Notes: generated by a model from the sequence alone, not told the origin. A stretch of 64,000 bases of DNA from an uncultured Methanosarcinales archaeon (GCA_964429995.1 CAYSDY010000002.1:6019-70018); one strand, 5' to 3'; shown: positions 14,983 to 37,397, counted from the stretch's first letter. Numbers and translations are program-made.

Positions 14983-15411
14983 ATGGTTTTAAATAAAAAA
15001 GCAATAAGTCCGGTAGTGGCTACAGCTCTGCTTTTAGTAGTTGCTGTTGTTGCAGTTGTAGGATTCCAAAGTTGGTTTACTACATACCAGAGTGGAATAA
15101 ACACAAAGGTTGAACAGCAGTCAAACGCTGGTTCAGTTTTAACAATTGAAAGATTAGAATCAAGTGCTAATGGTACTTTGTATTTGAAAAATGCAGGAAC
15201 AGAAAATGTTACAGTTTCATCATTTAAAGTTTTAAAAGATGGAGCAACACAGTGTGATGATTCTGGCTTAACAACAGTTGTTGCAGGTAACAGTGTTGAG
15301 GAACTATCTGGTTCAGGTGCTTGTGATGTTGCTCTTGTTTCAGGTTTGGCATACGATGTTGTTGTTGTTACAAACGTTGGAGTTTTCCAGGCAACAAAAA
15401 TTGCAAGATAA
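14983..15411 (+). CDS. archaeal type IV pilin (class III signal peptide), candidate major pilin of the adjacent pilus locus
   Basis: MVLNKKA|ISPVVATALLLVVAVVAVVGFQSWF is followed by a G/S/T/V-rich β-domain (LYLKNAGTENVTVSSFKV...). This is the same N-terminal module as the FGE-fusion paralogs. Confidence 0.7.
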   Translation: MVLNKKAISPVVATALLLVVAVVAVVGFQSWFTTYQSGINTKVEQQSNAGSVLTIERLESSANGTLYLKNAGTENVTVSSFKVLKDGATQCDDSGLTTVVAGNSVEELSGSGACDVALVSGLAYDVVVVTNVGVFQATKIAR

Positions 15412-15433
15412 AAATCTTGTATAAACAATAAAA

Positions 15434-15841
15434 ATGATTTACAGGAAAGGTTTGGTTTCAATAGCCACCTTTTCTTTTGTTCTTATTCTGATGATTTTTG
15501 TCTTAGGTTTTTCTTATTATGTTTACGATTTAAATAGAAGTTTTTTTATGGAAAAAGATATTGAGAAGGATATGTTTAAGTCAATGCTTGATTTTAGAAC
15601 ACAGGTTGTGTTTATGCATTCATGTAATAATTCATCGGTTACATATAGAAATTCACAATTAATGGAAGGGTTTTTGTTTAATGTAACAGATTCAAAATTT
15701 ACTGCTGTGTATTCTGATGCTGACATAAGGATTGAAAAAAACATTACCATGTATGGAATGAAATTTTGTGATAATTTTGTATTTAATCCTATAGTAGATC
15801 AGATTGTAATATATAATGGGACATGTATTAGCATTATTTGA
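15434..15841 (+). CDS. minor pilin-like protein (class III-like N-terminus RKG|LVSIATFSFVLILMIFVL)
   Basis: A short charged N-terminus with K-G is followed by a ~20-aa hydrophobic helix. The gene is first in a run of five such small genes upstream of the pilus ATPase. Confidence 0.45.
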   Translation: MIYRKGLVSIATFSFVLILMIFVLGFSYYVYDLNRSFFMEKDIEKDMFKSMLDFRTQVVFMHSCNNSSVTYRNSQLMEGFLFNVTDSKFTAVYSDADIRIEKNITMYGMKFCDNFVFNPIVDQIVIYNGTCISII

Positions 15842-15887
15842 TAGTGATTACATTTATTTATTATTTCAAAGCTTGAATCTTTAGTAT

Positions 15888-16364
15888 ATGTTATTCTATA
15901 AAAACAGAAAAGGATTATCTGAAATAATTGCATTTATATTACTCACTTTTCTTATAGTTACAGGTTCTACTTTAGTTTTTTATTTTGTTAAGGATTATGT
16001 GGATGAAGAAGTGTTTAAAATAGATCATATGAAAATGCAGGATAATATGAAAAATATTAACATGAATATAGGCCGTATAAAAAATGTTGATTCATCAGAT
16101 TTTTCTTTTAGCCTTAGTTTTAATACTGGCCTTTTATATTTTCAAGAAGGTATGATGAAGTATTATTCATTGATGGATTTTAATGGTATTGATTATTGTT
16201 TTAACAGTATATGTCATGTTGGAATAATTGGCAAAGAGATGATGTATTTTAACATGAGTTCAGATTATGTTTTTGAGCCTGAATTAAAACTTACTCCTGG
16301 TAATTATCTTATTACATTAAGAAATAATAAAAATGAAAAAAAGATACATGTTACAATCAAGTAA
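15888..16364 (+). CDS. minor pilin-like protein (NRKG|LSEIIAFILLTFLIV)
   Basis: Class III-like signal with Glu at +3, then a hydrophobic helix. Confidence 0.45.
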   Translation: MLFYKNRKGLSEIIAFILLTFLIVTGSTLVFYFVKDYVDEEVFKIDHMKMQDNMKNINMNIGRIKNVDSSDFSFSLSFNTGLLYFQEGMMKYYSLMDFNGIDYCFNSICHVGIIGKEMMYFNMSSDYVFEPELKLTPGNYLITLRNNKNEKKIHVTIK

Positions 16365-16848
16365 TAATCATGTTAAGGCATATATACAGATAGATACTGC
16401 ATTTATAGTGTTAATGTTTATTTTGTTTTTTACATTTGTAGTATATAGGGTTGAATCTTTTAAAAACACATATAATTATGAAATTGAATTCTTAAATCTT
16501 AAGAGTCAATCCGATGATATTTGTTTTATGTTTTCGTATACATCAGGTGATAAATATGACTGGGAAAATAATTTTGAAAATGTTTCAATGATAGGTTTTT
16601 TAAATGATGATAATTCAGGACTTAACATGTCAAAAGTTGAATTTTTAAATGATGATGTGTATTTTGATTTTATTGATAAACTTGGAGTTAAAGATCATTT
16701 ATATGTTAGATTTTCTTATATAAACTCTACTCTTATTAAAGAGTTTGGTTTTGCATCTTATAATTATCCTGTTGTGTTTTCAAACTCTATATGTTTTATT
16801 GACTTTGAAGATGAAATAGTAAAGATGGAGGTGAAATTATGGAAATAA
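16333..16848 (+). CDS. minor pilin-like protein (HVKA|YIQIDTAFIVLMFILFF)
   Basis: Same architecture as its neighbours. It overlaps the neighbouring gene ends. Confidence 0.4.
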   Translation: MKKRYMLQSSNNHVKAYIQIDTAFIVLMFILFFTFVVYRVESFKNTYNYEIEFLNLKSQSDDICFMFSYTSGDKYDWENNFENVSMIGFLNDDNSGLNMSKVEFLNDDVYFDFIDKLGVKDHLYVRFSYINSTLIKEFGFASYNYPVVFSNSICFIDFEDEIVKMEVKLWK

Positions 16849-17261
16849 AAAACAGAAAATCACAAATTACAATAATTGAAACAATTTTTATGATATTGTT
16901 GTTTTTTATATTTGCAGGATATTTATATGGAAATGATTTTAATTTTTTTTATAATGATTATGATTATAACAGCATTGATACTGCTATGATATCAATCTAC
17001 AAATTAAATAATTTTAGGGTTCCTGTGTTTGAAGAAGATATGAATGTTTCTTTAGTAACTGCTGACTGGAATTCATTAAAGGATTTATTGGATATGCAAT
17101 TTTCTGAATATACGGTTTCACTTTTGGATTTGGATGATGAAAAAATGGTTATAAATAGCACAACAAAAAATGTTGCTTATTATTCTTATGATGTATTTTT
17201 TTTTATTGATGATTACAATAATGTTTCAGGTTTTAGATATTTAAGAATGAGGGTGTATTAA
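16839..17261 (+). CDS. minor pilin-like protein (NRKS|QITIIETIFMILLFFIFAG)
   Basis: K-S|Q-I-T-I-I-E is a class III-like signal. It overlaps the neighbouring ORFs (translational coupling). Confidence 0.45.
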   Translation: MEIKNRKSQITIIETIFMILLFFIFAGYLYGNDFNFFYNDYDYNSIDTAMISIYKLNNFRVPVFEEDMNVSLVTADWNSLKDLLDMQFSEYTVSLLDLDDEKMVINSTTKNVAYYSYDVFFFIDDYNNVSGFRYLRMRVY

Positions 17262-17656
17262 TGAAAATGGTTTTAAAATTTAATAATAAGTCACAGATAA
17301 TAGTTCTTGCGTGTGCTTTTCTTTTTTTGATATTTTTATATATCTATTCTTTAGAGACAATGAATTCTTATATAAATATGCCACCTAAAACTACTATATT
17401 GCAGGTTGTTGCTGATGAAGTTTGTTATCTTGCTTATAGAAGTTCTGGGGAGGATTTAGATTTAAGATTGAAGATGGTTAATTCAAGTTTATTGGAATAT
17501 TGTAATAGTGAGGGTTTATTGTGCAGTTTTGACATAATACCTTATGGGGAAGTTCCTCCTTTAGGAAATTGGTCTTTGCTTAATTATTCTTATTATAATT
17601 TTTCATTGTTTGTTTCTGATTCAACTTTTAATTTTACAAGAGAATTTAAATGTTAA
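17261..17656 (+). CDS. minor pilin-like protein (NNKS|QIIVLACAFLFLIFL)
   Basis: Class III-like signal. It lies directly upstream of the ATPase and overlaps it by 7 nt. Confidence 0.45.
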   Translation: MKMVLKFNNKSQIIVLACAFLFLIFLYIYSLETMNSYINMPPKTTILQVVADEVCYLAYRSSGEDLDLRLKMVNSSLLEYCNSEGLLCSFDIIPYGEVPPLGNWSLLNYSYYNFSLFVSDSTFNFTREFKC

Positions 17657-19629
17657 AAATGGATATAAAGAAAATAAGTAAACTTATACAGAATGCAAAG
17701 AAAAATTATGTAGAGAAAAGTGATGATTTTAATATGTATCTTTCTGGAAGAAAACAGTTTAGTTTTCCTCTCATGCAGAATAGACCTTCTAATTCTTTGC
17801 CTAAGTTAGAACAGAATGATGTTAGTTCTGATGGGTCTGTTTCACAACAGGTTAATGCACTGCAGGATGATAATGTTTATCAGGATTTTAATCAGGCAAG
17901 TTCGCCTAACAATGCATTCCAAAATCAGCCAATGTATCCGCCTTCATATTATCCACAGGTTAATGTTATAGGAGGACCTACAAATGGTGCACCAATAAAT
18001 ATTATTGCTAAAAATTATATAGATCCTTTTAGCCTTGAAGATGAGGAAGAGGCTGTTAATGTTAAGAAAAAAAAGAAACATGAGCTTGCAGATGTACCAA
18101 TAAATCTTATTAAAGAATCTTCAACTGATTGGGAGCCTATAAATTATAGAGGAGTAAATGATAGTTATGCACTGTATAAAATGTCAAATGTATTCATAAA
18201 GTTTGATGAGGAACATCAGAAACTTCTTTATAAGATAGTTGAGCCTGAATTATCAGCAGAAGATCAAAAAGTTCTTTTGGAACTTAAAAAAGGTTTCATG
18301 TATGTTTTTGAAAAAATCTCAACAAAAGATTTGGAAAATTCTTCAACTGATTTAATAAACAGAGGTATTAAGGAACTTTCAAAAAAATATGGTATAAAAA
18401 TAAGTGATGAGTCTTTTACAAAGATTGCTTATTATCTTGAAAGGGATTTTTTAGGTCTTGAACAGTTAGAACCTATAATGCATGATAAGTACATAGAGGA
18501 TATTTCATGTGATGGATTAGGAGTTCCTGTTTTTGTTAACCACTTAAAGTATGGACCTATTGAAGTTAACAGGAAATTTGATGATGCAAATAAATTAAAT
18601 TCTTTTATTGTAAAGCTTGCACAAAAATCTAATCAAGAAGTTTCATTATCAAGACCTATATTACAGGGAGCTTTGCCTGATGGTTCAAGAATTGAGGCTA
18701 TTTATGGTAAGGAGGTTTCCGAAAAAGGTTCTTCTTTTACAATAAGAAAGTTTAGAGCTGAACCGTTCACCCCTATACATCTTATAGAATTTGGAACGAT
18801 GCCTCCACTTTTACTTGCTTATTTATGGCTTGCAGTAGAAAATAAAAAATCCATACTTGTGTCTGGTGGTACTGCAACAGGAAAGACAACAATACTTAAT
18901 GCTTTATCATTATTTGTGCCGCCTGCTGCAAAGATAGTTTCTATTGAAGATACTCCAGAAATAAACTTACCACACGAACATTGGCTTCCATTAATATCAA
19001 GAGAATCGCAGACACGTTCTGAGGTTTCAATGTTTGACCTACTTAAAGCTTCGTTAAGAGAGAGACCAGATTACATAATAGTTGGTGAGATAAGAGGTGC
19101 TGAGGCTGCAATTTTATTTCAAGGTATGGCAACAGGACATGCAGGGCTTGGTACAGTTCATGCAGAAAAGTTTACAGATCTTGTTAATCGTATGACAATA
19201 AAACCTATTGAATTACCAAAACAACTGATTACAGAACTTAACATATGTATATTTATGAATAGGGTTAAAGTTAAAGATAACATGGTAAGAAGAGCTGCTA
19301 GTGTTGTTGAGGTTGTTGATTATGATTCAAGAAAAGATACTTTTGAAACAAATGATTTTATGACATTTTTACCAGTTGAAGACTCTTTTGATTTTAGTGA
19401 AAAATCGTTTGTGATAAAACATCTTCTTGAATTAAGAGGTGGTAAGGAAGAGGCCTTATGGAATGAAATAGAAAAAAGAAGAAGAATATTAGATATGATG
19501 TCAAAAAACTTTATAACTGAATTTGAAGATGTAAATGATATCATACAGTCGTATTACAAGGCTCCTTCCGAAATATTTGATTATCTTGAAAATTTTATAA
19601 GTTTGAAAAAAAATAAAAGTGAAGAATGA
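17650..19629 (+). CDS. type IV pilus/archaellum assembly ATPase (FlaI/TadA/VirB11 superfamily) with a ~250-aa Q/N/P-rich N-terminal extension
   Basis: Walker A is VSGGTATGKTTILNAL. Walker B/Asp box is RPDYIIVGEIRGAEA. The His-box region is GHAGLGTVHAE. The N-terminus (QQVNALQDDNVYQDFNQASSPNNAFQNQPMYPPSYYPQ) is low complexity. Confidence 0.85.
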   Translation: MLKMDIKKISKLIQNAKKNYVEKSDDFNMYLSGRKQFSFPLMQNRPSNSLPKLEQNDVSSDGSVSQQVNALQDDNVYQDFNQASSPNNAFQNQPMYPPSYYPQVNVIGGPTNGAPINIIAKNYIDPFSLEDEEEAVNVKKKKKHELADVPINLIKESSTDWEPINYRGVNDSYALYKMSNVFIKFDEEHQKLLYKIVEPELSAEDQKVLLELKKGFMYVFEKISTKDLENSSTDLINRGIKELSKKYGIKISDESFTKIAYYLERDFLGLEQLEPIMHDKYIEDISCDGLGVPVFVNHLKYGPIEVNRKFDDANKLNSFIVKLAQKSNQEVSLSRPILQGALPDGSRIEAIYGKEVSEKGSSFTIRKFRAEPFTPIHLIEFGTMPPLLLAYLWLAVENKKSILVSGGTATGKTTILNALSLFVPPAAKIVSIEDTPEINLPHEHWLPLISRESQTRSEVSMFDLLKASLRERPDYIIVGEIRGAEAAILFQGMATGHAGLGTVHAEKFTDLVNRMTIKPIELPKQLITELNICIFMNRVKVKDNMVRRAASVVEVVDYDSRKDTFETNDFMTFLPVEDSFDFSEKSFVIKHLLELRGGKEEALWNEIEKRRRILDMMSKNFITEFEDVNDIIQSYYKAPSEIFDYLENFISLKKNKSEE

Positions 19630-20627
19630 TAAAGGATCTCAAAAAGCAGGATACTAATAGTAAAAAGATTTTAACAAATGAAAGTCTTATTGAGAAATAT
19701 TGTCATTTTATGTATAGGATATATGGTCGTAAGCTTCTTTTAAATGAAAAATTTAGTAAGATTTTTTATAGAAATTTTTATAACAAAAAATATGAGAAAA
19801 TATTAAGTCAGGCAAATTTAAGATTGATTCCAGAAGAATATTTCATATCCATATTTATGAGTCTTTCTTTTTTTTTATTAGCTTCTATAGTCTTTTCTGT
19901 ATTATTATCTTTTACGCATCCAATATGGGCCATGTTATTGTTTTATATAGGTGTTTTTGGGGTTGCAGTTATTGGGATTTTTATGTATAATTATCCTGTT
20001 GTTACAGCAAAATCAAGGGGTAGTGAGGTTGATGCATCAATTCCTTATGTGCTACCATACATGAAAATATTGTCAAAAGAATTAAGTCTTGCAAAAATAA
20101 TAGATATAATTGATGATTTTCTTATATATAAGCAGATTAAGATAGAATTTCAAAGAATAAAGTATTACTATTCTGTTATGGGATACGATTTAAACAGTTC
20201 AATTAGGTCTGCTATGGAGAGTTGTCCTTCTAAAAATCTTTCTGATATGATGAACGATCTTGTAACAATTTCAAATTCAGGAGGAAACATATATACTTAT
20301 CTTGAAAGAAAACTTGAAAATCTTAATAAGGAAATAAACGCAATAGAAAGTAAAAGTATAGATACATTGCTTATATATTCTCAGATTTATGTAGTTATTC
20401 TACTTATTTCACCACTGTTTTATACCATAATGAGCTCTATACTTAACATGATAGATATAAGTGCTGCTGCAGGAGATTCTATTGCTGGTTCAGGTAGTGG
20501 AACAGGGGTTGTATCATCAATAGTTATGCTTTTGTTTTTTTTACCAATTGCTTATATAGCTTTTATGACACTTATATATTATTCAAAGCCACTTTATTCA
20601 AGGCTTGAGCCAATCAATGAAAAATGA
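19626..20627 (+). CDS. pilus platform membrane protein, TadB/TadC (T2SSF) family, first of two
   Basis: Several TM helices flank a cytoplasmic T2SSF-like helical domain (SCPSKNLSDMMNDLVTISNSGGNIYTYLERKLENL...). The start overlaps the ATPase stop (ATGA). Confidence 0.7.
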   Translation: MIKDLKKQDTNSKKILTNESLIEKYCHFMYRIYGRKLLLNEKFSKIFYRNFYNKKYEKILSQANLRLIPEEYFISIFMSLSFFLLASIVFSVLLSFTHPIWAMLLFYIGVFGVAVIGIFMYNYPVVTAKSRGSEVDASIPYVLPYMKILSKELSLAKIIDIIDDFLIYKQIKIEFQRIKYYYSVMGYDLNSSIRSAMESCPSKNLSDMMNDLVTISNSGGNIYTYLERKLENLNKEINAIESKSIDTLLIYSQIYVVILLISPLFYTIMSSILNMIDISAAAGDSIAGSGSGTGVVSSIVMLLFFLPIAYIAFMTLIYYSKPLYSRLEPINEK

Positions 20628-21472
20628 ACAGTAATCTTAGTAATATTGAGGAAAAAGTAAGACTGGTTTTGCTTATTTTGGCATTTATATCTTTTATTTT
20701 AGGAATATTTTATACTATAAGTCATATAAACTATCCTAAAAACATAAATGTTGTTTTGATAATGCCTTTTATATTTTTTCTTGTGCCATATCTTTTTTTA
20801 GGATTGTTTAAGGTAAAAAGAATAGAAGCAAAAATGCATATAATACCTAGGTTTTTAAGAGATATTGTTGATAATGTTGATAGTGGAATGGATCTTATAT
20901 CATCTATTAAAAGTACAAGTGAAAATGAATATTCAATATTAAATGAAGATATTGAAAAATTGGTTAATCAATTATCATGGGGTGTTGATTTTAATGAGGC
21001 ATTGTCAAAGTTTGCTGATAATGTTGGAGATTACAATTTAAAGAGAGATTTTAGACTTGTAATTGAGGCAAGGGCTGTAGGTGGGCATGTTGATCAGATA
21101 TTAAGAGAGTTGTCATCAAAAATAGAAATAGACAATTTAAGAGGTAAGGAACGTAAGAGCAATCTTGCATCAAATACATTTACTGGTTATATTTCATTTG
21201 TAATATTTCTTTTCATAATAATACTTGTTTATAACAACTTGTTTTTGGGTATTGCAAGTAGTTTTTCTGCAACACAAACATTTGCACAAATTCAAGATAC
21301 AAATAATATGATGAATATTAATCTTACTTTTCTTATACTGCTTGCTTATGAACTTGCAATACTTTCAGGGTTTTTGTTTGGACTTATGCAGGATAATAAC
21401 ATAATAAGTGGGGCTCCGCATGTTGTTATACTTGTTGTTATAGTTTTTGTAGGTTTTTTCTTTTTTATTTAA
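20624..21472 (+). CDS. pilus platform membrane protein, TadC (T2SSF) family, second of two
   Basis: T2SSF-like domain: DSGMDLISSIKSTSENEYSILNEDIEKLVNQLSWGVDFNEALSKFADNVGDYNLKRDFRLVIEARAVGGHVDQILRELS. It is ATGA-overlapped with the previous gene. Confidence 0.7.
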   Translation: MNSNLSNIEEKVRLVLLILAFISFILGIFYTISHINYPKNINVVLIMPFIFFLVPYLFLGLFKVKRIEAKMHIIPRFLRDIVDNVDSGMDLISSIKSTSENEYSILNEDIEKLVNQLSWGVDFNEALSKFADNVGDYNLKRDFRLVIEARAVGGHVDQILRELSSKIEIDNLRGKERKSNLASNTFTGYISFVIFLFIIILVYNNLFLGIASSFSATQTFAQIQDTNNMMNINLTFLILLAYELAILSGFLFGLMQDNNIISGAPHVVILVVIVFVGFFFFI

Positions 21473-21937: not shown

Positions 21938-22822
21938 ATGTCTAAAATTTTGGATTTTATATCCGAGCTTGATGCTAAGAGTTTTCTTTCTGCTCTTATT
22001 GATTCATCATTTTATAGATATCTGTTTCCGTTTTTGCTTGTTTTTACAGTTCTTAATGCAATCTTACCGAATGCTTTAATTTTTAAGAATAAAAAAACAG
22101 GTAAGCCATATAAGGCAGTCGTATTTACAATTTCATTAATAGTTGCACTTTTTAGTGTGAGTTTTGAAATTTCTGATGCTGGATATGTTCTTGGTGATTT
22201 TATATGCATGATGTTTCCTAACATTTCAGCATTAACGATTGCAATACTTTGTTTGTATTTTGTTGGTGCAATAATTGGGGAAAATTTTTTTAAGGGAGCT
22301 TTAAGTCCAAGATACACATCTTTTTTAACAATATTTATACTTTTTATAGGTTTTGGAAGTTTTATTTATTATATGGGAATTGTAATGGGATTTTGGGATG
22401 ATTATGTTATCTCAAATTTATTTTTCTGGAACATTACAATTGCAATAATATTTACTGTACTTGGACTCTTATTTTTATTTATAGATATGGCCCTTTATGG
22501 GCTTTTGTTGTTGGTGATTGTTGGTGGATTTATTGCAAATTATGGAGATAATGTGTCAATACTTAGCTATTTTGTTGATCCAATAATATTTATAGCATTT
22601 TTATTCGTTGCATTTTTTACATATCTTACACAAAACGATGATGATCTTGAAACCCAAAAAGATAGAATTAGAAAGAAGATGGATGATATTTCAAAAGAGA
22701 TGGAATCCATTAAGAAATCAAATTCTGGAAAAGAACCTAAAGATTATGAACATAAGATATATGATATTTTAAAGGCATCTTATTATGATTATGAAAAAAA
22801 GCTAAAGAAACTTGAAAAATAA
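21938..22822 (+). CDS. polytopic membrane protein (294 aa), paralog of 22951-23607
   Basis: It shares the N-terminal module ...SFLSALIDSSFYRYLFPFLLVFTVLNAI... with the next gene (...SFIEALIDGGWYEFVFPFFLVFAVVFTI...). Confidence 0.5.
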   Translation: MSKILDFISELDAKSFLSALIDSSFYRYLFPFLLVFTVLNAILPNALIFKNKKTGKPYKAVVFTISLIVALFSVSFEISDAGYVLGDFICMMFPNISALTIAILCLYFVGAIIGENFFKGALSPRYTSFLTIFILFIGFGSFIYYMGIVMGFWDDYVISNLFFWNITIAIIFTVLGLLFLFIDMALYGLLLLVIVGGFIANYGDNVSILSYFVDPIIFIAFLFVAFFTYLTQNDDDLETQKDRIRKKMDDISKEMESIKKSNSGKEPKDYEHKIYDILKASYYDYEKKLKKLEK

Positions 22823-22950: not shown

Positions 22951-23607
22951 ATGGGTTGGATTACTGATTCCTTAGGAGATTTAGATGTCACCTCTTTTAT
23001 AGAGGCTTTGATTGATGGCGGATGGTATGAATTTGTTTTCCCCTTCTTTCTTGTTTTTGCAGTGGTCTTTACAATAATGAAGAAAGTAACTATCTTTCAA
23101 GATAAAAAATCTGTTCATTTTATAGTTGCGTTTGTTTTTTCTTTATTTGCAATAGCATTTCCAATAACAGGTGATTTTGATAACTGTGGGGTAGGATATG
23201 GAGGGTATGGTTGTGAGACTCTTGGAAGCCTTCTTATGACAATGTTTCCAGGGGTTTCTGCATTTACAATGGGTGTTCTTGCTTTGTATATTGTGTGTGC
23301 TATGCTTGGTGTTGATCTTATGGACTTTTTTAATCCAGAGAATAAGACATACAATAAATACATAAAATATGTTTTAGCAGTGATAGGAACATTGGTTGTG
23401 GTTTATTATTATGCAAGAGGTTTTGGATGGGAAGGATTTGAATCTGATTCTCTTAGCTGGTTATTTGGAGATGATGGTTTACTTGCAGATCCTATGTTGT
23501 ATATTATCATTGTATTTGGAGGTTTGTTCTACTGGATTACAACTGATGACAATAAAGTTGGTGGTAAACCAGCACCACCAGCACCACCAGCACCACCAGC
23601 ACCTTAA
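22951..23607 (+). CDS. polytopic membrane protein (218 aa), paralog of the previous gene, with a C-terminal (PAP)n tail
   Basis: See paralogy above. It ends KPAPPAPPAPPAP, encoded by a 9-bp tandem repeat. Confidence 0.5.
   Translation: MGWITDSLGDLDVTSFIEALIDGGWYEFVFPFFLVFAVVFTIMKKVTIFQDKKSVHFIVAFVFSLFAIAFPITGDFDNCGVGYGGYGCETLGSLLMTMFPGVSAFTMGVLALYIVCAMLGVDLMDFFNPENKTYNKYIKYVLAVIGTLVVVYYYARGFGWEGFESDSLSWLFGDDGLLADPMLYIIIVFGGLFYWITTDDNKVGGKPAPPAPPAPPAP
23569..23604 (+). repeat. microsatellite-like 9-bp tandem repeat (gcaccacca) x ~4 encoding PAPPAPPAPPAP
   Basis: ccagcaccaccagcaccaccagcaccaccagcacct. It is a possible slippage-prone (phase-variable length) tract. Confidence 0.7.
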
Positions 23608-23618
23608 GCTAAATTAAA

Positions 23619-24605
23619 ATGGGAAAAAAAAATATATTTTTGATGACAATTATGCTTGCATTCATGTTCATGTTTGCAGGTTGTGATGCTAATACTGATG
23701 ATACTAAGCAAAATGCACTTGTTTTAACAGGTGCTTATAATGGGGGAGATAATGCTCTAAGTTTAAAATTTGTTGATGGACAACCACCTTCAAAGATAAG
23801 AGATGGGGGTCTTCAACCATTTAATATAAGAATGCTTATCGAAAATCTTGGAGAATATACCATACCTGAGAACAAGACACATGTATGTCTTTCTGGAATA
23901 AATCATAAAGAGTTTGGTATTGAGGATAGTTCTTTAGATATTCCTGAACTAAGAGGAGTTAAAAAACAGGGTACTAATACAATAAATGGTGCTATATTAC
24001 CTGTTTTGTTTTCAAATCTTAAATATTATCCAGAACTTCCTGCAGGAACAAACAAACAGAAGATTTTAGTTGATTTGTCATATCCTTACAAGACAAAGGC
24101 ATTGATTAGCTTATGTGTTAGTGGAAATACTTTACAGACACAGGATAAAACATTAAAGGTCTGTGAAATAGAAGGAAAAAGAACATTTGCAAATTCAGGT
24201 TCACCTGTTCAGATTAACAATGTTATTCAGACACCAGCAGGACCTAATTCATTGATGTTACAGTTTGACATAATCAAGAAAAGCAAAAGTGGAAGAATTT
24301 ATAGACCTTCTACATTGGATGAAGAATGTAGAGTTCTTGGAAATTCTGTTGCATCATCAGAAGCTTCAATGTCTGAAAATTATGTTGAATATATAGTTGA
24401 TACAAATGGTGTTGGTAGTATTTCTTGTGGTGGTTCTAATCAGAATAGTGAAGTTGTCTTATTGACAAATTCTAAAACTACTGTTTATTGTACAATTGAT
24501 ACAAAAGGAGAACAGGATTATGAAAAGCCAATTAGTGTTGAATTAAATTATGATTATTTTGAAAGATTTGAATTATCTGTTGATATAGAGCATGTTGCTA
24601 GATAA
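23619..24605 (+). CDS. secreted lipoprotein (328 aa), hypothetical
   Basis: Signal peptide with a lipobox-like motif: MLAFMFMFAGC|DANTDD. Confidence 0.5.
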   Translation: MGKKNIFLMTIMLAFMFMFAGCDANTDDTKQNALVLTGAYNGGDNALSLKFVDGQPPSKIRDGGLQPFNIRMLIENLGEYTIPENKTHVCLSGINHKEFGIEDSSLDIPELRGVKKQGTNTINGAILPVLFSNLKYYPELPAGTNKQKILVDLSYPYKTKALISLCVSGNTLQTQDKTLKVCEIEGKRTFANSGSPVQINNVIQTPAGPNSLMLQFDIIKKSKSGRIYRPSTLDEECRVLGNSVASSEASMSENYVEYIVDTNGVGSISCGGSNQNSEVVLLTNSKTTVYCTIDTKGEQDYEKPISVELNYDYFERFELSVDIEHVAR

Positions 24606-27068: not shown

Positions 27069-28073
27069 ATGGATGATAAAAATAATGTTTACAAAATAGA
27101 GAAAGATTTTCTAATTAATCTTAAAATGGGTGATATTAGAAAAGCGGATTTTCTTGATGTTGTTTATGATGATTCTTGCGTAAAAGAGATGGATATAAAA
27201 GATGTTTTATCTATTGATAAAAATATTATTTCAAGTATAGAATACAAAGAATCATTAAAATTAAAAAAGACTATAATTGAAAACTTTAAACACAATAGAA
27301 TTTTTTCTGTATTATCTGATACTAAGCTGAGTATTAATGGGAGTGGACAACTATATATTGTTGTTGAAAAAGATGTAAACATATTTCTTGATTTTGACAT
27401 GTCATCTTTATTGGCAGGATTAGTTGTTAATATAATTGTTAAAAATAAAAGTATCTGCAATATATTTGAAATAAATACAGGCGATAATTTTTACAAATTG
27501 TCATATATTTTTTGTGATGATAATTGTGTTGTTAATCATTATATTGTAAATAGTGATGTTAAAAGTTCCAATATATGTACTATAATAAAAGAATCAGGAA
27601 CATATTACACAGATATAATAAATCTTAACAAAAATGTTTCTCATAAAGGATTTACTTATCTTTATAACTTACAGCAAAACTCTGTTTCAGAACTTTTGCT
27701 TATTGCAATTGCTGAAAATGGATTTTCTATTGATTGTAGTGGACTTGTAAGAATATCTAAAGATGCTAAAAATGCATCTGGAAAACAAAATCTTAAAGGA
27801 TTTTTAATAGATGATGAATCTTTAATATTATTAAAACCGGATCTTGAAGTTTTAAATAATGATGTTGCATGTTCTCATAAGGCTGAGGTTTTTGATTTTT
27901 CCTATATGCAAAAATATTATATGGAATCTAGAGGCATATTTGAGGGTGATATATATGATATGATAATATTGGGAAAAGCCTTATTCTTTTTAAACAAAGC
28001 TTTTACATATTGTTTTATTAGTGATTTTAATAAATGCTTGGAAAAAAGTCTTCATCTAAAGATTTCTTCCTAA
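27069..28073 (+). CDS. sufD: Fe-S cluster assembly protein SufD-like
   Basis: The C-terminal region DVACSHKAEVFDFSYMQKYYMESRGIFEGDIYDMIILG matches the SufD/SufB β-helix C-terminus. It lies immediately downstream of sufB. No sufC is in the window. Confidence 0.7.
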   Translation: MDDKNNVYKIEKDFLINLKMGDIRKADFLDVVYDDSCVKEMDIKDVLSIDKNIISSIEYKESLKLKKTIIENFKHNRIFSVLSDTKLSINGSGQLYIVVEKDVNIFLDFDMSSLLAGLVVNIIVKNKSICNIFEINTGDNFYKLSYIFCDDNCVVNHYIVNSDVKSSNICTIIKESGTYYTDIINLNKNVSHKGFTYLYNLQQNSVSELLLIAIAENGFSIDCSGLVRISKDAKNASGKQNLKGFLIDDESLILLKPDLEVLNNDVACSHKAEVFDFSYMQKYYMESRGIFEGDIYDMIILGKALFFLNKAFTYCFISDFNKCLEKSLHLKISS

Positions 28074-30048
28074 TGTATTCATAAAATTCTAAATAATTAT
28101 TTTCTTCTATTATCTTATTACTGTATGGAACTTTAAACATTATAGAATTTCCTGTATGTATATTATCAAAACTAAAATTTTTAAATTCAATCATTCCTTT
28201 TAACTGATAATCTTTATCAGTATAAAACAAAGTTATGTTGTATTCTATATCTTCTAATTCTAAAAGGGATATGCTATTTAGGTATTCTGAATCCTGATTT
28301 GGCCATATAGCTACCGATTCATGTGCATATTCTTCATTCTCAATAATTACTAAAACTTGACCATCTTCTTGATTGATTATTCTTTTACCAATTTGTGTAT
28401 CCTTATCTATAAGAAGTACATATTCAGCACTGTCAAATTTGAATTCTTTTAATCTTATCATCTCAAAATCAACTCTATTGTCTCCTATGAAAGTTTCTCT
28501 TCTTAACAATGAATTATCTGTATCTATCCTTTTTTTTGATGTTAAATACCCATCTTTTTGTGCAATTACATACCCTCCTATGCAAAATGGAAACTTTACT
28601 TGTAATTCTGGGTCTGCGTATTGTCTTGTAATTCCTAGATATTTTGGTTTTTGAGTTGTTCCCATATCACATTTGATTCCCATGCATTGGTATGATATTG
28701 CAACATTATCTATAGGATTTAGATCAATATCGCTTGTTGTTATTAAAAGATCATATTTCATGTTGTTTTCGGAACAATAATCTTTCTTGTTAAATGTTAA
28801 ACCACTGTTTTCTGATATTATTATGTTGTTGTTTTTAGGTTCGTTGTTATCTATCTTAATTCTTATTGGAAATTGAAAGACAAAATTAGAATTGTCTTTT
28901 GAGTCTTTTAATTTTACTATAAGGTCATAATCAAGAGTGTATAAGTGATGGTATATCTGAATACATGGGATTGGTATCTGCCATCCTAAATTCATATCAA
29001 GTGTCATTGCTTCTGTTATTATACCATTACTTGGGGTTACATCAAAAGTTCTGTATGGATATCTTTTAAAATATCCGCTTTGATTGTTGATTTCTGTTGA
29101 TGGCATAAAAACTTGAACATCATAATTAGTGTAACTTTTTTTTTTATTATCAAGACTAATCCTGTACATATTGTTGTAATAAGATTTTATTTCCTTGTAA
29201 TCATCAAGATTGCTTAGTGCTGATTCTAATAAAATATTTTGTTTTTCTAGTGTGCCTTCAAACTGTAGGTATTTAAAATTGTTATTGTTCATGCTTGCAA
29301 GATTTTTTTTTAAATTATCTATTGTCCATATTCTTTTTGCACATGAAAAGAACATTCCTTCAGATGGCATTGATATATCAGATGAATAGTCGTTTGCCGA
29401 ATGAATTTGTTCTAAAACAAGTTTTTCAAAAAAATTACTTTTAGCTTGTTGATTATATATTTCTAGTGCTAGATTGTATAAATTTCCAAGATGGATATTT
29501 TCAAGTTTTACTACATAATTAGATATTGTAAGTATTTCATTTGAATTTTTTTCATTGAATCTTATATTTAGTTCTGATTCAATAACTATATTATAGTCAT
29601 TTATTATTGCATTTGTACTAAATGCATCTGAAACAGTTATATCAAACGATTCATTTAATGCTAAAAGATTTGATTTAATACATGAATAACTATTTGCAAG
29701 GATATATGATTCAAGTTCATTTTCCATAGATGATATTGTTGGAAAACTGTTTGTTGATGAATCCCAATTGGGTATTTTAATTCCAAAATCTGTGTATGAA
29801 AAAGGATTTGCATTTATAGATTTAGGTATTGATATATAACCTCCCTGAAGACCTATAAAATTTGCACCATTTTTTGCTGAATCATATATACAGTCTTTTA
29901 CTATTGCAGATACCTGGTTTTTTAATTTTGTATCATGGCTTTGGAAAATTTCTATTTCTGAGTTATATAGTAAAAATATTGAAACAATTACAAGTATTAT
30001 TCCTATTATTACAAATAAACTGACCTGAGATTTTTTTTTAGCATCCAT
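28027..30048 (-). CDS. large secreted protein (673 aa) with a pilin-type (class III-like) N-terminus KKS|QVSLFVIIGIILVIVSIFLLY
   Basis: The N-terminal motif K-S|Q-V-S plus a hydrophobic helix resembles the minor pilins at 16839 and 17261. The rest is N/S/Y-rich extracellular sequence. Confidence 0.55.
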   Translation of the reverse strand: MDAKKKSQVSLFVIIGIILVIVSIFLLYNSEIEIFQSHDTKLKNQVSAIVKDCIYDSAKNGANFIGLQGGYISIPKSINANPFSYTDFGIKIPNWDSSTNSFPTISSMENELESYILANSYSCIKSNLLALNESFDITVSDAFSTNAIINDYNIVIESELNIRFNEKNSNEILTISNYVVKLENIHLGNLYNLALEIYNQQAKSNFFEKLVLEQIHSANDYSSDISMPSEGMFFSCAKRIWTIDNLKKNLASMNNNNFKYLQFEGTLEKQNILLESALSNLDDYKEIKSYYNNMYRISLDNKKKSYTNYDVQVFMPSTEINNQSGYFKRYPYRTFDVTPSNGIITEAMTLDMNLGWQIPIPCIQIYHHLYTLDYDLIVKLKDSKDNSNFVFQFPIRIKIDNNEPKNNNIIISENSGLTFNKKDYCSENNMKYDLLITTSDIDLNPIDNVAISYQCMGIKCDMGTTQKPKYLGITRQYADPELQVKFPFCIGGYVIAQKDGYLTSKKRIDTDNSLLRRETFIGDNRVDFEMIRLKEFKFDSAEYVLLIDKDTQIGKRIINQEDGQVLVIIENEEYAHESVAIWPNQDSEYLNSISLLELEDIEYNITLFYTDKDYQLKGMIEFKNFSFDNIHTGNSIMFKVPYSNKIIEENNYLEFYEYIRKKSLDEDFFPSIY

Positions 30049-30049
30049 T

Positions 30050-30448
30050 TTATATTAAAGTTTTAAGATTTATTCTAGTTTTTTTTGCATTACATTTGTA
30101 CATTTCATTTTTTAGGTCTATGTATAATGGAATTATTGCTAGTTCATTTGGGTTTTTTGTTTTGATATTAAATTCCTGTTTGCTTTGAGGTGCTAAAGAA
30201 TGTATTGTTCTTTCATCATCTCCAAACAAAAAATCAATTTTTACTGTTCCTTTGTTTGCTATCTGGACTAAAACACCTGCATTTGCTTTTGTTTTTTTTG
30301 TAATCTCATAATTAATGTATTGACATTTTTCATGATCGCTTTGAAAAAACGAATTGAGTGAGACTGATAAAAGCAAACTTATGAAAAATCCTGCAACAAG
30401 TAGACATATTACATGAGATTGAATTGCTTTTCTGTTTTCTAAATTCAT
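30050..30448 (-). CDS. small secreted/membrane-anchored protein (132 aa), N-terminus RKA|IQSHVICLLVAGFFISLL
   Basis: Class III-like N-terminus. It abuts the 673-aa gene and sits in the same operon-like arrangement. Confidence 0.45.
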   Translation of the reverse strand: MNLENRKAIQSHVICLLVAGFFISLLLSVSLNSFFQSDHEKCQYINYEITKKTKANAGVLVQIANKGTVKIDFLFGDDERTIHSLAPQSKQEFNIKTKNPNELAIIPLYIDLKNEMYKCNAKKTRINLKTLI

Positions 30449-30518
30449 ATAAAATACCTGTAGCTTATTTTTAAAAAAATCTATTATTATCTTTTAGTAA
30501 TGAAAATAATTAAAATGA

Positions 30519-33338
30519 TTATTTACATTCTCCATTTAGGCATTTTTTACCAGAACCGCAACTCCACCCAGTATTTTTGATTGAATCAAAGCCAGGTTCA
30601 GGAAGTAGTGATAGTGATGTAAAAAAATCATAACATATAGGTATGTTATCACTTTTAGACTTATAAGATGGAGAGTTTACAAGTCCAGCACATTTACCAT
30701 CCTCTTTACAATACCCTTGGCTAAGATAGATATTTGTTGGTTTAGCATCGTTTTTTCCAACAGTTGATGTAAGTAGTTTCCAGCCTGCTGAATCCTGAGG
30801 GTTTGATTGAGTATAATACCATTTTTCGTCACAAAATACATTTTTGGTTTGAAATTCATGGTTGGAATAACTAGTAACAGGCCCAACTAATTGTCCTGTG
30901 TTTTCTGAAAGAAGTCCTGTGTCAAAAAGAAGGGTTTTGTCCATGTATTTTGTTTCTATTCTTCTACCTGTTGTTTTTAATTCACATGCTTGGCATTTTT
31001 CTGCATGTTGCTGAACTAAAAGATTTAATGATTTGATTTTTTGAGGTTTATAACTTTTAGCTTCTATAAAAAATTTTTCAATAGTTCCAAAGTTGATTCC
31101 TGATGGATATCCAAATTCTTGCAAATTATCTTCTCCTCTTGGTAGATTGCCTTCACATTTTATTACGATTTTGGCTTTTAGAAGTGATGTTATTTCAGGG
31201 TGTATATTCCATAATATTTTTTCAGATATTTCATTATCTTTGGATGTAAATCTGTAACATATGTAGAGAAGTGTATCAAGTGCAGTTTCTCCTTTTTTAA
31301 GTATTTTAGGATCAAGAAGATTTAAAGAATTAGCTGATCCTTTTTCATATGCTTTTACATCACTATCAACTTTGTTTATATCACAACATGTTGCATTAAA
31401 CATTGAATCTGTAACATTTGGACCAAGACAGTATGCAGGATATGCTTTAAATATAAATGATTCACTTACAGGGTTTTCCGGGTCATGTTTTAAAAAAACA
31501 TCAACCTTGTATTCATATAGTTTTCCGTCTGGTTTTATATCTATACTATATCCTTTCTTATCTTCGGAGTATCCTATTTCACTAAAATCAGAACTTCCTT
31601 CACTTTTTTCATAAAATTTAATTTCAAACAATTTATCACTAAATATACAACTTTTAAGAAATGATAACTTTGAATTTTTTGGTTCACTATCTTGCATTGC
31701 ACCTGAAAAATATGGTACAAGACCAAAAGCTTCTGCTTTTTGCGATCCTTTTCTTCTTTCATATATCTTGTCTTTAAAAGTGGCATGTATTGGAAATCTT
31801 TCATTTGAGTCAGGGTAATTTGAAAATTTAAAGCAGTTTTTTGCATCGGTATTATTTGCATTATCAGTTACGCCAGTTATAAAATTTATCTTATAATCTC
31901 TTTTTGTTTCACCATCAGTTACCTGTATTATGAAGGTATAGATTTTTTCCCTAAAAGCCTTAAATGACATTATTCCATCTTTTGTGATTGAGAACTGTCC
32001 ATCTGTAGAATCATATGAATCTTCTATAAAATAAAAAAGATGATTGTCATAAAACTGTATATCTTTTGTATAGTTTGTAAGATTGTATGATACAAAATAA
32101 TTCTTTGCACATACAAATGTTATTTCATCATCATTTTCTATCACATCAAGTTCTGAAAAATTAATTTTTGGTGCCATATTTTCATATCCAAAATTAAGTA
32201 CATAAGGATTTCCATCGATAATTGAAGACCTATCTATTAAAGAGTACATGAATTTTTTATGTTCATTATCATTTTTTATTATTTTTACATTAAGAGATAT
32301 GTCTTTTAACATGGTTCTTTTAAAATATTCACTCTTTGACATTGTGTTTATGAATGAAGATGAATCAAGATAATCTATCATTTTATTCTTGTAATATTTT
32401 TCATTTATCAGAATTTTTGCAAAATCAAGAAGTGTTTTTAATCTTATATTATTCTTTATGCTTGAACTTTGGTATGTTATTGTGTGTTTGCTATTTTTAT
32501 CGTATACATTTATTGTAAACAAAGAATTTATACTCACACTTTCTTCATTGATGCTTATGTTTAATATTGGACTCTTATTGATATTTACAACTGCAAAATT
32601 ATTGAAATCACTTATTTCTCTATTTTCAAGATTATTTATTTCACTAATGTGGGCAGTAAAAATAGCATTAGTTTCATCTTTTTTTATAATTTTTCCCGTA
32701 AATTTCTGATTATTTGTTAACATCATAATAGTATCATTTATGTCAGCATCAATATTATTTATTACGATTTCTTTTTTAGAATAATCAATATGTTTTAATT
32801 GTCCTAAGTATTGATTAAAGTTTGTTTCATAGCCTTGAAAGTTTGAAAAATCAAGACAATTTAGAAAATTAGCTCTTACATAATCTTCTATATCTTCTTT
32901 TATTGTGTGACTAAATACTGTTTCTCCCTGAAGTGTTAAAGTATTTTTTTCAAGTTGAGGGTATTGTGGATAAATATATGAGTAAGCCATTGCTTTATCA
33001 GAAAGAAAATTCCAGTTAAGACCTAAATTAGATATTAGCTTTTCATTATAAGTATTTTTAGGAATTATGCCTTGAATATAATATTCATCTCTTCTATATA
33101 TGTATCCACCTCTAAGTCCTGCAATTATTAATGCATTCTTAAGGTTTCTACTAAGACAATGATCTATTTTTGTTTTTATGTTTATTAGTTCATCGTTTTT
33201 ATTGTCTTCATTTTTTATTGGAATATCTATTCTATCTTCATCAGTTTGTTTTTTATAACTTGCAAGAGAAATAAAAAGTACTACTATTATTAGAACTATT
33301 ATTAAAAAAATAGTTATTTGGGCTTTTTTAACTTTCAT
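30519..33338 (-). CDS. giant secreted protein (939 aa) with pilin-type N-terminus KKA|QITIFLIIVLIIVVLF and a Cys-rich C-terminal module
   Basis: The N-terminal motif matches the class III consensus [KR]-[GAS]|Q. The C-terminal ~70 aa contain 8 Cys (…GWSCGSGKKCLNGECK), an EGF-like knot. Confidence 0.6.
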   Translation of the reverse strand: MKVKKAQITIFLIIVLIIVVLFISLASYKKQTDEDRIDIPIKNEDNKNDELINIKTKIDHCLSRNLKNALIIAGLRGGYIYRRDEYYIQGIIPKNTYNEKLISNLGLNWNFLSDKAMAYSYIYPQYPQLEKNTLTLQGETVFSHTIKEDIEDYVRANFLNCLDFSNFQGYETNFNQYLGQLKHIDYSKKEIVINNIDADINDTIMMLTNNQKFTGKIIKKDETNAIFTAHISEINNLENREISDFNNFAVVNINKSPILNISINEESVSINSLFTINVYDKNSKHTITYQSSSIKNNIRLKTLLDFAKILINEKYYKNKMIDYLDSSSFINTMSKSEYFKRTMLKDISLNVKIIKNDNEHKKFMYSLIDRSSIIDGNPYVLNFGYENMAPKINFSELDVIENDDEITFVCAKNYFVSYNLTNYTKDIQFYDNHLFYFIEDSYDSTDGQFSITKDGIMSFKAFREKIYTFIIQVTDGETKRDYKINFITGVTDNANNTDAKNCFKFSNYPDSNERFPIHATFKDKIYERRKGSQKAEAFGLVPYFSGAMQDSEPKNSKLSFLKSCIFSDKLFEIKFYEKSEGSSDFSEIGYSEDKKGYSIDIKPDGKLYEYKVDVFLKHDPENPVSESFIFKAYPAYCLGPNVTDSMFNATCCDINKVDSDVKAYEKGSANSLNLLDPKILKKGETALDTLLYICYRFTSKDNEISEKILWNIHPEITSLLKAKIVIKCEGNLPRGEDNLQEFGYPSGINFGTIEKFFIEAKSYKPQKIKSLNLLVQQHAEKCQACELKTTGRRIETKYMDKTLLFDTGLLSENTGQLVGPVTSYSNHEFQTKNVFCDEKWYYTQSNPQDSAGWKLLTSTVGKNDAKPTNIYLSQGYCKEDGKCAGLVNSPSYKSKSDNIPICYDFFTSLSLLPEPGFDSIKNTGWSCGSGKKCLNGECK

Positions 33339-34158
33339 TTTTTTTAGGCTTAAATGTGATAAAAAGTATTGTTAATATTAAAATTATAGTTGTGTATTTT
33401 AAGTATTTATATATACTGTCATTTTCATGGACTGTTATTTTTATATTGTTTTTATCTTTTGTTGTTAGTGTTTTATTGATCGTATAATTTATTTTTACTG
33501 GCGGATTTTCAATATTCCATGAAATTAATGGGTCTGCTTTTTCTATTTTATATGGATAATTACTGTATGGTATTAGAATATCCTTGTTTTCATCATTAAG
33601 TTCTTCTATTACGCTTTTATCTATGTCAGCCTTAATTTTTAGAGGAACTTTTGACTCAACAGATATTATTATGTCAGTAGTTCCCATCTCTGGGTTATCA
33701 TTAAATATTGTTTCAACATTATAATTAGTATTTTTTTGAATGCTATTTGAATGTTCATAAATTAATGTATTACTTGCAGTTACTATTCTTGCAGTATATC
33801 TGTTTAAAGTATTATATTTAAAATCATCATCTGTACATGTTTCTTTGTATGATAAGATTTCTTTTTTGTAATTTATTTGTTTTCTGCATATTGTTTTTGA
33901 TTCCTTAATATTTTCTTTTACTATTTCAAACATGTAAGTACCTTCATTAAGTTCACCTATCTCATAAGATATATCAAGGCTTTGATTTACTTGAGTCATG
34001 TATATTAATTTTAGTGGTATTGATTTTGTTTTGACATAATCGTAGTTTTTAGTATCTATTTCTTTCTGAAAATCGTTAGTGTCTATATTTTCGTATGCAA
34101 AACAGGTGCTAGCAATTGTAAATATTATAAGCAAAAAAGATAATATATTTTTTTTCAT
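33328..34158 (-). CDS. secreted protein (276 aa) with a Sec signal peptide and a C-terminal TM anchor
   Basis: N-terminus MKKNILSFLLIIFTIASTCFA. C-terminus TTIILILTILFITFKPKK. It is first in the minus-strand operon 34158->28027. Confidence 0.5.
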   Translation of the reverse strand: MKKNILSFLLIIFTIASTCFAYENIDTNDFQKEIDTKNYDYVKTKSIPLKLIYMTQVNQSLDISYEIGELNEGTYMFEIVKENIKESKTICRKQINYKKEILSYKETCTDDDFKYNTLNRYTARIVTASNTLIYEHSNSIQKNTNYNVETIFNDNPEMGTTDIIISVESKVPLKIKADIDKSVIEELNDENKDILIPYSNYPYKIEKADPLISWNIENPPVKINYTINKTLTTKDKNNIKITVHENDSIYKYLKYTTIILILTILFITFKPKKNES

Positions 34159-36820: not shown

Positions 36821-36832
36821 CGTTTTAAGTAC
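36790..36832. repeat. tandem duplication of a 20-bp unit, AAAACTTGACGTTTTAAGTA x2. Each unit can form an AAAAC/GTTTT hairpin.
   Basis: gaAAAACTTGACGTTTTAAGTAttAAAACTTGACGTTTTAAGTAct. The second copy contains the NUDIX stop codon. It lies between convergent genes. Confidence 0.7.
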
Positions 36833-37397
36833 TTTTTGCTAGAATTAATGCAAATATTACTATTACTGTAAGAAATAGGAATGCAGATACTGTATCGTTA
36901 TCCATTCTATCAAAAAAGGCTTTAGAGTTTTCTTCTGTTACTATGTCATCATAACCTATGTTAAATTCAGGGTTTATTGCATATGGATCATCCTGTGGAT
37001 TGCTTGTGTCAAAAACATTGTTTATGCTAAAAAATGCCTTTAACATGATTACAGAAAAAAGTACTAAAAGACATATTACAAATATTTTTACGTTTGAATT
37101 ATTTTGACCTTTTAGATAAGATGTACCATCTACACCTAAAAAGGCCAATATAGTTATTATGAAAAATATTGTTAATATTATTACAGAAAATATATTCATC
37201 CCATATGAAATTGTGTATGATATTATACCTGTAAGGGAAACAAAAATAGCTGCAATTATTGATATTAGAGAATTTATGTGTTTACTTTCGCTTATCGGTT
37301 TAAACTTTTGAAGTATTGAGAAGATTATTACATAAATCAGAATTCCTGCTAGAAATACTTTTAAAGGTTCAATTAGGTTTTCAGTAAAAATTGCCAT
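36825..37397 (-). CDS. polytopic membrane protein (190 aa), hypothetical
   Basis: Five predicted TM helices. Confidence 0.45.
   Translation of the reverse strand: MAIFTENLIEPLKVFLAGILIYVIIFSILQKFKPISESKHINSLISIIAAIFVSLTGIISYTISYGMNIFSVIILTIFFIITILAFLGVDGTSYLKGQNNSNVKIFVICLLVLFSVIMLKAFFSINNVFDTSNPQDDPYAINPEFNIGYDDIVTEENSKAFFDRMDNDTVSAFLFLTVIVIFALILAKST

Follow-up and report, generated by a model that had tools for sequence, protein, structure and literature searches.

The Epd pilins of Methanococcus maripaludis carry FlaFind-predicted cleavage sites that read RAQI, KGQV, KGQV, KGQL and KGQI, and the conserved Gln at position +1 of M. maripaludis pilins has been confirmed by mass spectrometry; EppA needs a +1 Gln, whereas FlaK refuses it (PMC4371748). 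Epd corresponds to "system 1" of a census, a system in which the ATPase is accompanied by a platform split into two genes and which is found in methanogens, Thermococcales and DPANN archaea (preprint 10.64898/2026.04.22.720090). That large proteins can carry class III signals is also established: the sugar-binding proteins of the Sulfolobus bindosome and large FlaFind-positive Haloferax proteins are large class III substrates (PMC4371748; preprint 10.64898/2026.04.22.720090), and adhesin-like class III signal peptide (SPIII) proteins are documented in archaeal type IV filament (TFF) loci (preprint 10.64898/2026.04.22.720090). The concept is not new, and an earlier note on the DNA described here, which spoke of an unusual use of the class III pathway, overstated the case in view of these Sulfolobus, Haloferax and TFF examples. 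The DNA in question is a stretch of 64,000 nucleotides deposited under an uncultured Methanosarcinales archaeon (GCA_964429995.1, CAYSDY010000002.1:6019-70018), which in its full length is called the window. On its minus strand lie four co-oriented genes, p276, p939, p132 and p673 (Table 1). The best explanation of the whole, given a probability of roughly 0.6, is that this cassette is an operon that builds a cell-surface protein complex and that three of its products, p939, p132 and p673, are of the prepilin type.

The listing of open reading frames (ORFs) of the window places four genes, not three, in the span from 28027 to 34158. The ORFs of 939, 132 and 673 aa that had been described previously match exactly in coordinates and N-termini; p276, which lies inside the same span, was absent from that description. 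The reading frames of p276 and p939 have 11 nt in common, only 1 nt lies between p132 and p673, and the 70-nt spacer between p939 and p132 is the sole sizeable gap in the cassette. A 134-bp AT-rich stretch with TATA-like elements is found upstream of p276. The tight spacing and the overlap fit an operon, and p276-p939-p132-p673 looks like one.

The N-termini of p939, p132 and p673 share a [K/R]-[G/A/S] pair directly before the hydrophobic stretch (KKA↓Q in p939, KKS↓Q in p673 and RKA↓I in p132, where the arrow marks the predicted cut), and in the AlphaFold models of p939 and p673 this stretch is a hydrophobic N-terminal helix of ~20 residues. When all window ORFs were scanned with a rule that asks for [K/R]-[G/A/S]-x followed by ~20 uncharged residues within the first 35 residues, the matches were the five small pilin-like ORFs that belong to a pilus locus in the same window, p939, p673 and one multi-pass false positive. 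The other large secreted proteins of the window have ordinary Sec signals, which sets p939, p132 and p673 apart as a distinct class. The sites of p939 (KAQI) and p673 (KSQV), compared with the tabulated Epd sites, are of the EppA type.

This motif is conserved to great evolutionary distance. The full-length members among the 77 homologues of p673 all begin ...K-K-[G/A/S]-Q-[I/V/L]-[S/T]-[I/L/V]-F-[I/V]-[I/V]-I. In an alignment of 67 sequences (A2), the invariant columns number only 15, Gln8 among them, and the conservation of Phe12 is at least 90%; Gln7 is invariant across 37 full-length p939 members (A3); and in the 75 most divergent members (A4), for which the mean column identity is 7%, the four invariant columns are the motif Gln, two Cys and one Gly. 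The +1 Gln column is invariant in alignment A6 as well, and this Gln opens the hydrophobic stretch without exception in homologues down to ~20% identity. The motif as a whole was found in 211 of the 227 collected homologues, with the Gln at a median position of 7, and on the strength of this conserved K/R-[G/A/S]↓Q pattern an origin of the hydrophobic N-termini by chance was rejected. Within the 211, position −1 is Gly, Ala or Ser in 95% (Ser being the commonest −1 residue in module homologues), position −2 is Lys or Arg in 82% and position +3 is Ser or Thr in 87%; position +2 is Ile or Val, and the hydrophobic consensus spans +2 to +12. The p132 orthologues show K-K-A↓[I/L/V]-x-[S/T]-[Y/H] in 12 of 13 cases. 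The earlier note had proposed that these N-termini are prepilin-like rather than ordinary Sec signals, to be abandoned if homologues had Sec signals or lacked a conserved site; the homologues keep the site, with an invariant Gln, and the proposal stands. Together, these sequence comparisons support the view that the N-termini of p939, p132 and p673 behave like archaeal class III signals rather than like arbitrary signal anchors.

The motif is the first part of a larger shared module. The N-terminal parts of p939 and p673 are homologous over the first 200-320 residues (hhalign probability 98.6%, E 1.3e-15), a relation seen only by profile-profile comparison, as direct BLASTP of p673 against p939 is not significant. 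The module consists of the leader, the membrane helix, one helix whose Cys is invariant, the motif G-[L/x]-[Q/R]-G-G-[Y/F]-I and another helix with the partner Cys. A word-indexed search with p939 returned only 3 homologues, whereas a profile search run exhaustively over 1.84 billion cluster representatives returned 64 full-length clusters at E<1e-30 and 1,138 clusters at E<0.001, with clusters defined at 50% identity. A profile of the 83-aa N-terminal module gave 4 weak matches only in a set of 5.8 billion proteins. Most of the 1,138 clusters have only the first ~85 module positions in common; past these they differ, and their lengths are 250-1,250 aa. In a Pfam scan of 75 module members no common family emerged, single members carrying Big_13, Big_9, PKD, cadherin-like or laminin-G domains, and the module of more than 1,100 clusters corresponds to no Pfam or NCBIfam family.

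Natural in-frame fusions occur in three subgroups, in a total of five cluster representatives (P0155, P0162, P0171, P0178 and P0215), in which a Sec signal, a short ectodomain, a transmembrane (TM) helix and a short basic loop precede a K-S↓Q-I-T-I-F module. This order mirrors that of the genes p276 and p939, which argues that p276-type and p939-type proteins work together. In addition, the fusions put the motif in a short cytoplasmic loop, so that it would face the cytoplasm, where prepilin peptidases act.

The cassette recurs as a unit in other genomes. All loci recovered by look-ups and by a scan of GTDB species genomes belong to metagenome-assembled genomes (MAGs) of Woesearchaeota or Nanoarchaeota, and the few that are labeled "uncultured Methanosarcinales" are presumably mislabeled. 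Mapping with phmmer showed the p276-p939-p132-p673 order to be intact in at least 10 distinct Woesearchaeota/Nanoarchaeota genomes, and the p276 orthologues retain the same architecture and the same cassette position in at least 10 loci. Complete genomes such as CP060218.1 and OZ242164.1 are among those with the cassette. Its neighbors in the window, namely NUDIX, PUA and the gene for a 190-aa membrane protein, also adjoin it in six genomes; in three further loci only NUDIX stands beside it. The p132 orthologues always lie directly upstream of p673, and three loci retain just the pair p132-p673. The p939 gene evolves fast and is missing or unrecognizable in three loci (L005, L010 and L011). 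A phage or mobile-element origin was rejected in view of the synteny with housekeeping genes and of a sole, weak PHROG match (p132, E 0.0083). A vertically inherited operon of Woesearchaeota/Nanoarchaeota is the best explanation of this distribution.

Further genes were noted at some of these loci. In the window, the 190-aa protein that lies between PUA and NUDIX beside the cassette in six other genomes (36825-37397) is a multi-pass membrane protein without a family. In one Woesearchaeal lineage (L004, identical to L017), a 913-aa protein with the canonical pilin N-terminus KKG↓IGPVIASSLLIVVAVVAIIGF and a DUF7483 domain is encoded between p939 and p132 (L004 6807-9548), and a Yip1/Flagellin_arch-type protein follows p673 (L004 12014-13069). 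Distant relatives of p673 adjoin Sec-dependent proteins of 1,900-2,100 aa, in one locus in an organism of 64% GC. More broadly, distant module members are encoded in clusters together with Sec-signal proteins of 1,070-2,106 aa and further unknown proteins (L007 1870-18536, on the 64% GC contig; L006 10001-18192; L024), a hint that other lineages of archaea have larger clusters of surface-protein genes.

In the AlphaFold model of p673 (mean predicted local distance difference test score, pLDDT, 88.2), a helix of residues 6-29 is followed by a short break (residues 30-37) and an α/β region (residues 38-420), for which comparison of the model with solved folds gave no structural counterpart. The model of p939 (pLDDT 84.8) has a helix of residues 3-34, with residues 30-47 below pLDDT 50. 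The N-terminal domain of p939 holds a conserved Cys61...Cys161 pair, a G-L-R-G-G-Y-I motif and an inserted β-barrel-like subdomain. Of the Cys residues, 18 of 19 are conserved in p939 and 8 of 8 in p673, consistent with disulfide-bonded extracellular proteins, and the extracellular folds of both are predicted to be adhesin- or stalk-like. Scans of all four cassette proteins found no Pfam, NCBIfam or PHROG family, sequence-profile searches of the PDB with both family alignments gave no match at E≤1, the p132 family has no Pfam family, and p132 has no homology to the pilins of the window past the leader. The p132 of the window lacks two Cys, the one at position 53 and the C-terminal one, that nearly all orthologues keep (alignment A7); apparently both partners of one disulfide pair have been lost together. 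An EGF-like knot of eight Cys, previously suggested for the end of p939, was rejected: residues 782-939 hold nine Cys and match neither an EGF profile nor an EGF fold with the six-Cys pattern, and nothing in profile or fold comparison supports such a knot.

The window also contains an Epd-like (system 1) type IV pilus locus (Table 1), in which two of the small pilin-like ORFs begin NRKS↓QITIIE and NNKS↓QIIVL. The organism therefore has this type of machinery and substrates with the same site. The end of the pilus locus is 6.5 kb from the cassette, and a tRNA gene, membrane-protein genes, a KH-like gene and Suf genes lie between them. The pilins and the pilus ATPase of the window imply that a prepilin peptidase would be encoded elsewhere in the genome.

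Table 1 Features of the four-gene cassette and of the pilus locus in the window (positions counted from the first nucleotide of the window).
Feature	Position	Strand	Details
p276	33328-34158	minus	276 aa; first gene of the cassette
p276 signal peptide	about 34096-34158	minus	residues 1-21; Sec-type
p276 C-terminal transmembrane helix	about 33352-33396	minus	ectodomain before it, short Lys-rich tail after it
p939	30519-33338	minus	939 aa; ORF begins MKVKKAQITIFLIIVLIIVVLF
p939 leader MKVKKA	33321-33338	minus	predicted cut before Gln7; then QITIFLIIVLIIVVLF
p939 hydrophobic helix	33255-33320	minus	residues 7-28; predicted to be retained; low-confidence linker after it
p939 N-terminal extracellular domain	32379-33197	minus	residues about 48-320; homologous domain in p673
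p939 cadherin-like Ig domain (predicted)	31869-32177	minus	residues about 388-490; starts at conserved Y-E-N-x-A-P
p939 Cys-rich C-terminal region	30522-30995	minus	residues 782-939; nine Cys
p132	30050-30448	minus	132 aa; ORF begins MNLENRKAIQSHVICLL
p132 leader MNLENRKA	30425-30448	minus	predicted cut before Ile9; then IQSHVICLLVAGFF
p132 hydrophobic helix	30356-30424	minus	residues 9-31; then β-rich domain of ~100 aa with conserved Cys
p673	28027-30048	minus	673 aa; ORF begins MDAKKKSQVSLFVIIGIIL
p673 leader MDAKKKS	30028-30048	minus	predicted cut before Gln8; then QVSLFVIIGIILVIV
p673 hydrophobic helix	29965-30027	minus	residues 8-28
p673 shared N-terminal domain	29446-29937	minus	residues about 38-201
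p673 tandem transthyretin/CnaB-like β-sandwiches	28114-28776	minus	residues about 425-645; predicted fold
Epd-like (system 1) type IV pilus locus	14983-21472	plus	inferred candidate assembly machinery for the cassette
Pilin	14983	plus	N-terminus KKA↓ISPVVATALLLVVAVVAVVG; weak Pilin_N
Five small pilin-like ORFs	within 14983-17656	plus	two with K-S-Q-I type N-termini (16839, 17261)
T2SSE-type ATPase	17650-19629	plus	E 1.1e-33
Two half-size T2SSF platform genes	19626-21472	plus	E 1.8e-06 and 2e-15

From the gene order, conservation, motifs and predicted folds described above, we infer the following mechanism. The p276 protein would be exported by Sec and kept anchored by its C-terminal helix. The p939, p132 and p673 proteins would be inserted into the membrane with the short Lys-rich leader on the cytoplasmic side; an EppA/PibD-type peptidase encoded elsewhere in the genome would then cut after K-[G/A/S], so that the mature proteins begin with Gln (p939, p673) or Ile (p132) and keep the hydrophobic helix of ~22 residues. 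That the three are prepilin-peptidase substrates which lose a leader of 6-8 residues and keep the helix is rated as probable. Thereafter, the proteins may stay membrane-anchored with p276 as a hetero-oligomeric surface complex. Alternatively, together with the pilin-sized p132, they may be non-polymerizing tip or base subunits on a short fiber of the Epd-like machinery, for which modular minor pilins and GspK, a bacterial tip pseudopilin that lacks Glu5, are precedents. In either case, p132 and p673 would form the conserved core pair, and the extracellular parts would be a structural or adhesive module in which a disulfide-braced N-terminal domain is joined to cadherin-like (p939) or transthyretin/CnaB-like (p673) domains. 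The β-sandwich and cadherin-like architecture points to such a structural or adhesive role, and contact with a host or with other cells is plausible as speculation. An earlier suggestion of pilus-tip or pilus-anchored adhesins gains from the adhesin-like predicted folds as far as adhesion is concerned; its pilus part loses ground to Phe at +5, to the flexible linker and to the missing linkage with pilus loci elsewhere.

Several observations weigh against processing by a prepilin peptidase. No Peptidase_A24-type gene was found among the window ORFs scanned, and on related contigs none for a prepilin peptidase occurs within ~10 kb past the right end or ~6.5 kb past the left end of the window. 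The Pfam families Class_IIIsignal (PF04021, with the motif QxSxE), Pilin_N (PF07790) and Tad (PF13400) have no match at E≤1 among the window proteins concerned, and the N-termini of two homologues reach sub-threshold scores only (8.7 bits for PF04021, cut-off 23.7; 17.1 bits for PF13400, cut-off 22.3). Position +5 is Phe in 201 of the 211 motif-bearing homologues (95%) and never Glu. The membrane helix of p673 and p939 is followed by a break or a flexible linker whose length varies among homologues, so that neither has the continuous α1 of a pilin. At none of the other loci is a pilus ATPase or platform protein encoded within 10 kb of the cassette, which is also the outcome of a check proposed earlier, namely that homologues be sought next to pilus loci. 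Finally, if the fused proteins were cut at the motif, their leader would comprise 100-125 residues and two membrane helices, unlike that of a typical prepilin peptidase substrate. Apart from the fusions, each of these points would be expected if the N-termini were uncleaved signal anchors of type II membrane proteins inserted via Sec/YidC and K-x-Q-x-S-x-F reflected a constraint of helix packing or of the lipid interface on a membrane-proximal module that the proteins share. In contrast, an invariant polar Gln at the boundary of the n- and h-regions, preceded by Gly, Ala or Ser in 95% and by Lys or Arg at −2 and maintained among proteins with no more than 20% identity, is characteristic of a processing site; moreover, the motif coincides residue for residue with reported EppA sites and persists internally in the fused proteins. 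Uncleaved anchors are accordingly regarded as a minority explanation, to be taken seriously and yet rather improbable.

Processing may also be real and have no relation to pili. The four cassette proteins would then be the main envelope scaffold, an S-layer-like coat or membrane stalk held by N- and C-terminal helices. Housekeeping synteny and SlaB-like domains fit this explanation, which is compatible with cleavage of the leader; however, the similarity to SlaB is limited to generic β-sandwich domains (TM-score 0.14), lattice-forming features are not seen, and a fast-evolving p939 that cannot be recognized at three of the loci would be unexpected for a sole wall protein. A scaffold of this kind is judged as doubtful as the uncleaved anchor. 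Nutrient capture by class III-signal substrate-binding proteins has a precedent for large substrates in the Sulfolobus bindosome, but neither the four proteins nor their neighbors contain a substrate-binding-protein or ABC transporter domain, and the predicted folds are β-sandwich and cadherin-like rather than periplasmic-binding-protein-like. With neither a binding-protein fold nor a transporter, this role was rejected as very improbable. In the favored reading of a surface complex with prepilin-type subunits, p939 and p673 do not themselves resemble filament-forming type IV pilins: they have no continuous α1 on a compact head, with ectodomains of 640-900 aa, and no linkage to pilus genes. 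The absence of Glu at +5, the flexible linker and the very large ectodomains argue against their being polymerizing subunits.

A wider proposal can be offered, tentatively and as an unlikely one. The leader, the retained helix and the Cys...G-x-Q-G-G-Y-I domain might together be a display module, and an EppA-like peptidase might be a general route for mounting a large and rapidly evolving surface repertoire of more than 1,100 clusters as non-polymerizing, pilin-anchored subunits in Woesearchaeota/Nanoarchaeota and in some other archaea, including the 64% GC lineage. The cassette would then be a core attachment or envelope complex of putative symbionts, and Phe at +5 a switch that prevents polymerization.

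Woesearchaeota and related DPANN archaea are uncultured and are thought to live attached to other cells; to our knowledge, their surface biology is essentially unknown. The analysis provides a testable signature (invariant Gln at +1, Phe at +5 and a conserved membrane-proximal domain), a conserved four-gene cassette and a large superfamily that can be annotated as candidate prepilin-peptidase substrates. If processing occurs, the EppA-type pathway serves a wide class of large surface proteins in addition to small pilins, and these archaea gain concrete candidates for host attachment or envelope structure. If the motif is instead an uncleaved anchor, it calls for caution with class III predictors.

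Other features of the window are recorded here. The window has ~28% GC and is archaeal, with archaeal-type ribosomal protein genes; its organism is taken to be a tiny archaeon of the Woesearchaeota/Nanoarchaeota group. Its EF-1alpha, aIF1A, enolase and Suf genes and the KH-like gene were identified by reading their sequences alone; two Suf genes were named from sequence and mutual similarity rather than by Pfam scan. GC skew is ~0 at 28001-34000, against +0.2 to +0.3 elsewhere, which coincides with the only long minus-strand gene block and is ascribed to the purine bias of coding strands rather than to a replication feature. Three paralogous "modular pilins" (6124-7587; 9462-11036, with the true start probably at Met45, 9594; and 63285-64000, partial) combine the canonical archaeal pilin N-terminus K-[A/C]↓ISP[V/I][V/I]ATALLLVVAV.AVVGF with a domain of ~450 aa that ends FGE-sulfatase/C-type-lectin-like (Pfam 6.3e-07 for 6124-7587). 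Compared with the K-[G/A/S]↓Q leader, theirs indicates two distinct class III leader types in the genome. Just after the pilus locus, two genes (21938-22822 and 22951-23607) encode membrane proteins with N-termini that by eye are paralogue-like, one with a (PAP)n tail, and between the pilus locus and the KH and Suf genes lies a 328-aa protein (23619-24605) with a lipobox-like N-terminus (..MFMFAGC↓D) and no family. Finally, a two-gene unit is apparently duplicated in tandem (52411-52992/54535-55062 and 53054-54391/55145-58276): its secreted proteins of 175-193 aa with Gly-rich tails are nearly identical, and its 445-aa protein resembles, almost residue for residue, the first ~440 residues of a 1,043-aa Cys-rich protein with a Sec signal.

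Set against known systems, the cassette proteins are most readily compared with the Epd pilins of M. maripaludis, with which they share a short Lys/Arg-rich leader, the site [K/R]-[G/A]↓Q-[I/V/L], Ser or Thr at +3, a retained hydrophobic helix and a system 1 locus, here in the same window. They differ in that Epd pilins have Glu at +5 and ~60-150 aa, whereas the p939/p673 family has Phe at +5 and a mature length of 650-950 aa with a flexible linker, and in that p939 and p673 are encoded outside the pilus locus and have no supra-threshold PF04021 match. Like the PibD substrates of Sulfolobus and Haloferax, they are large, non-filament proteins that bear a class III signal and whose genes lie away from assembly genes; compared with the Sulfolobus bindosome, they have no substrate-binding fold and no transporter neighbors, a Gln+1 (EppA) site and a dedicated four-gene cassette with a Sec-dependent partner. 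With GspK, TcpB/CofB and the PilB/PilC proteins of S. sanguinis they have in common that a pilin-type N-terminus carries a bulky module, functional or adhesive, and has small pilin-like partners, as in the modular pilin concept outlined in PMC8179133 and PMC9934059. They are unlike these proteins in sequence, in fold and in the archaeal processing motif, and a tip location of the cassette proteins would be purely conjectural. The DUF2341/PilY-like and Ig-rich arCOG05616 adhesins are likewise big, Cys-rich, β-sandwich-rich surface proteins; these, however, belong to recognized families, lie inside pilus loci and are functionally tied to archaeal type IV filament systems, whereas the cassette proteins are without a Pfam family and, in all the genomes examined, are encoded outside pilus loci. 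What is new here is a superfamily of more than 1,100 clusters without annotation, in which an EppA-like leader with Phe at +5 is placed on a conserved membrane-proximal domain, together with a conserved four-gene cassette that includes a Sec-dependent partner, and the natural fusions.

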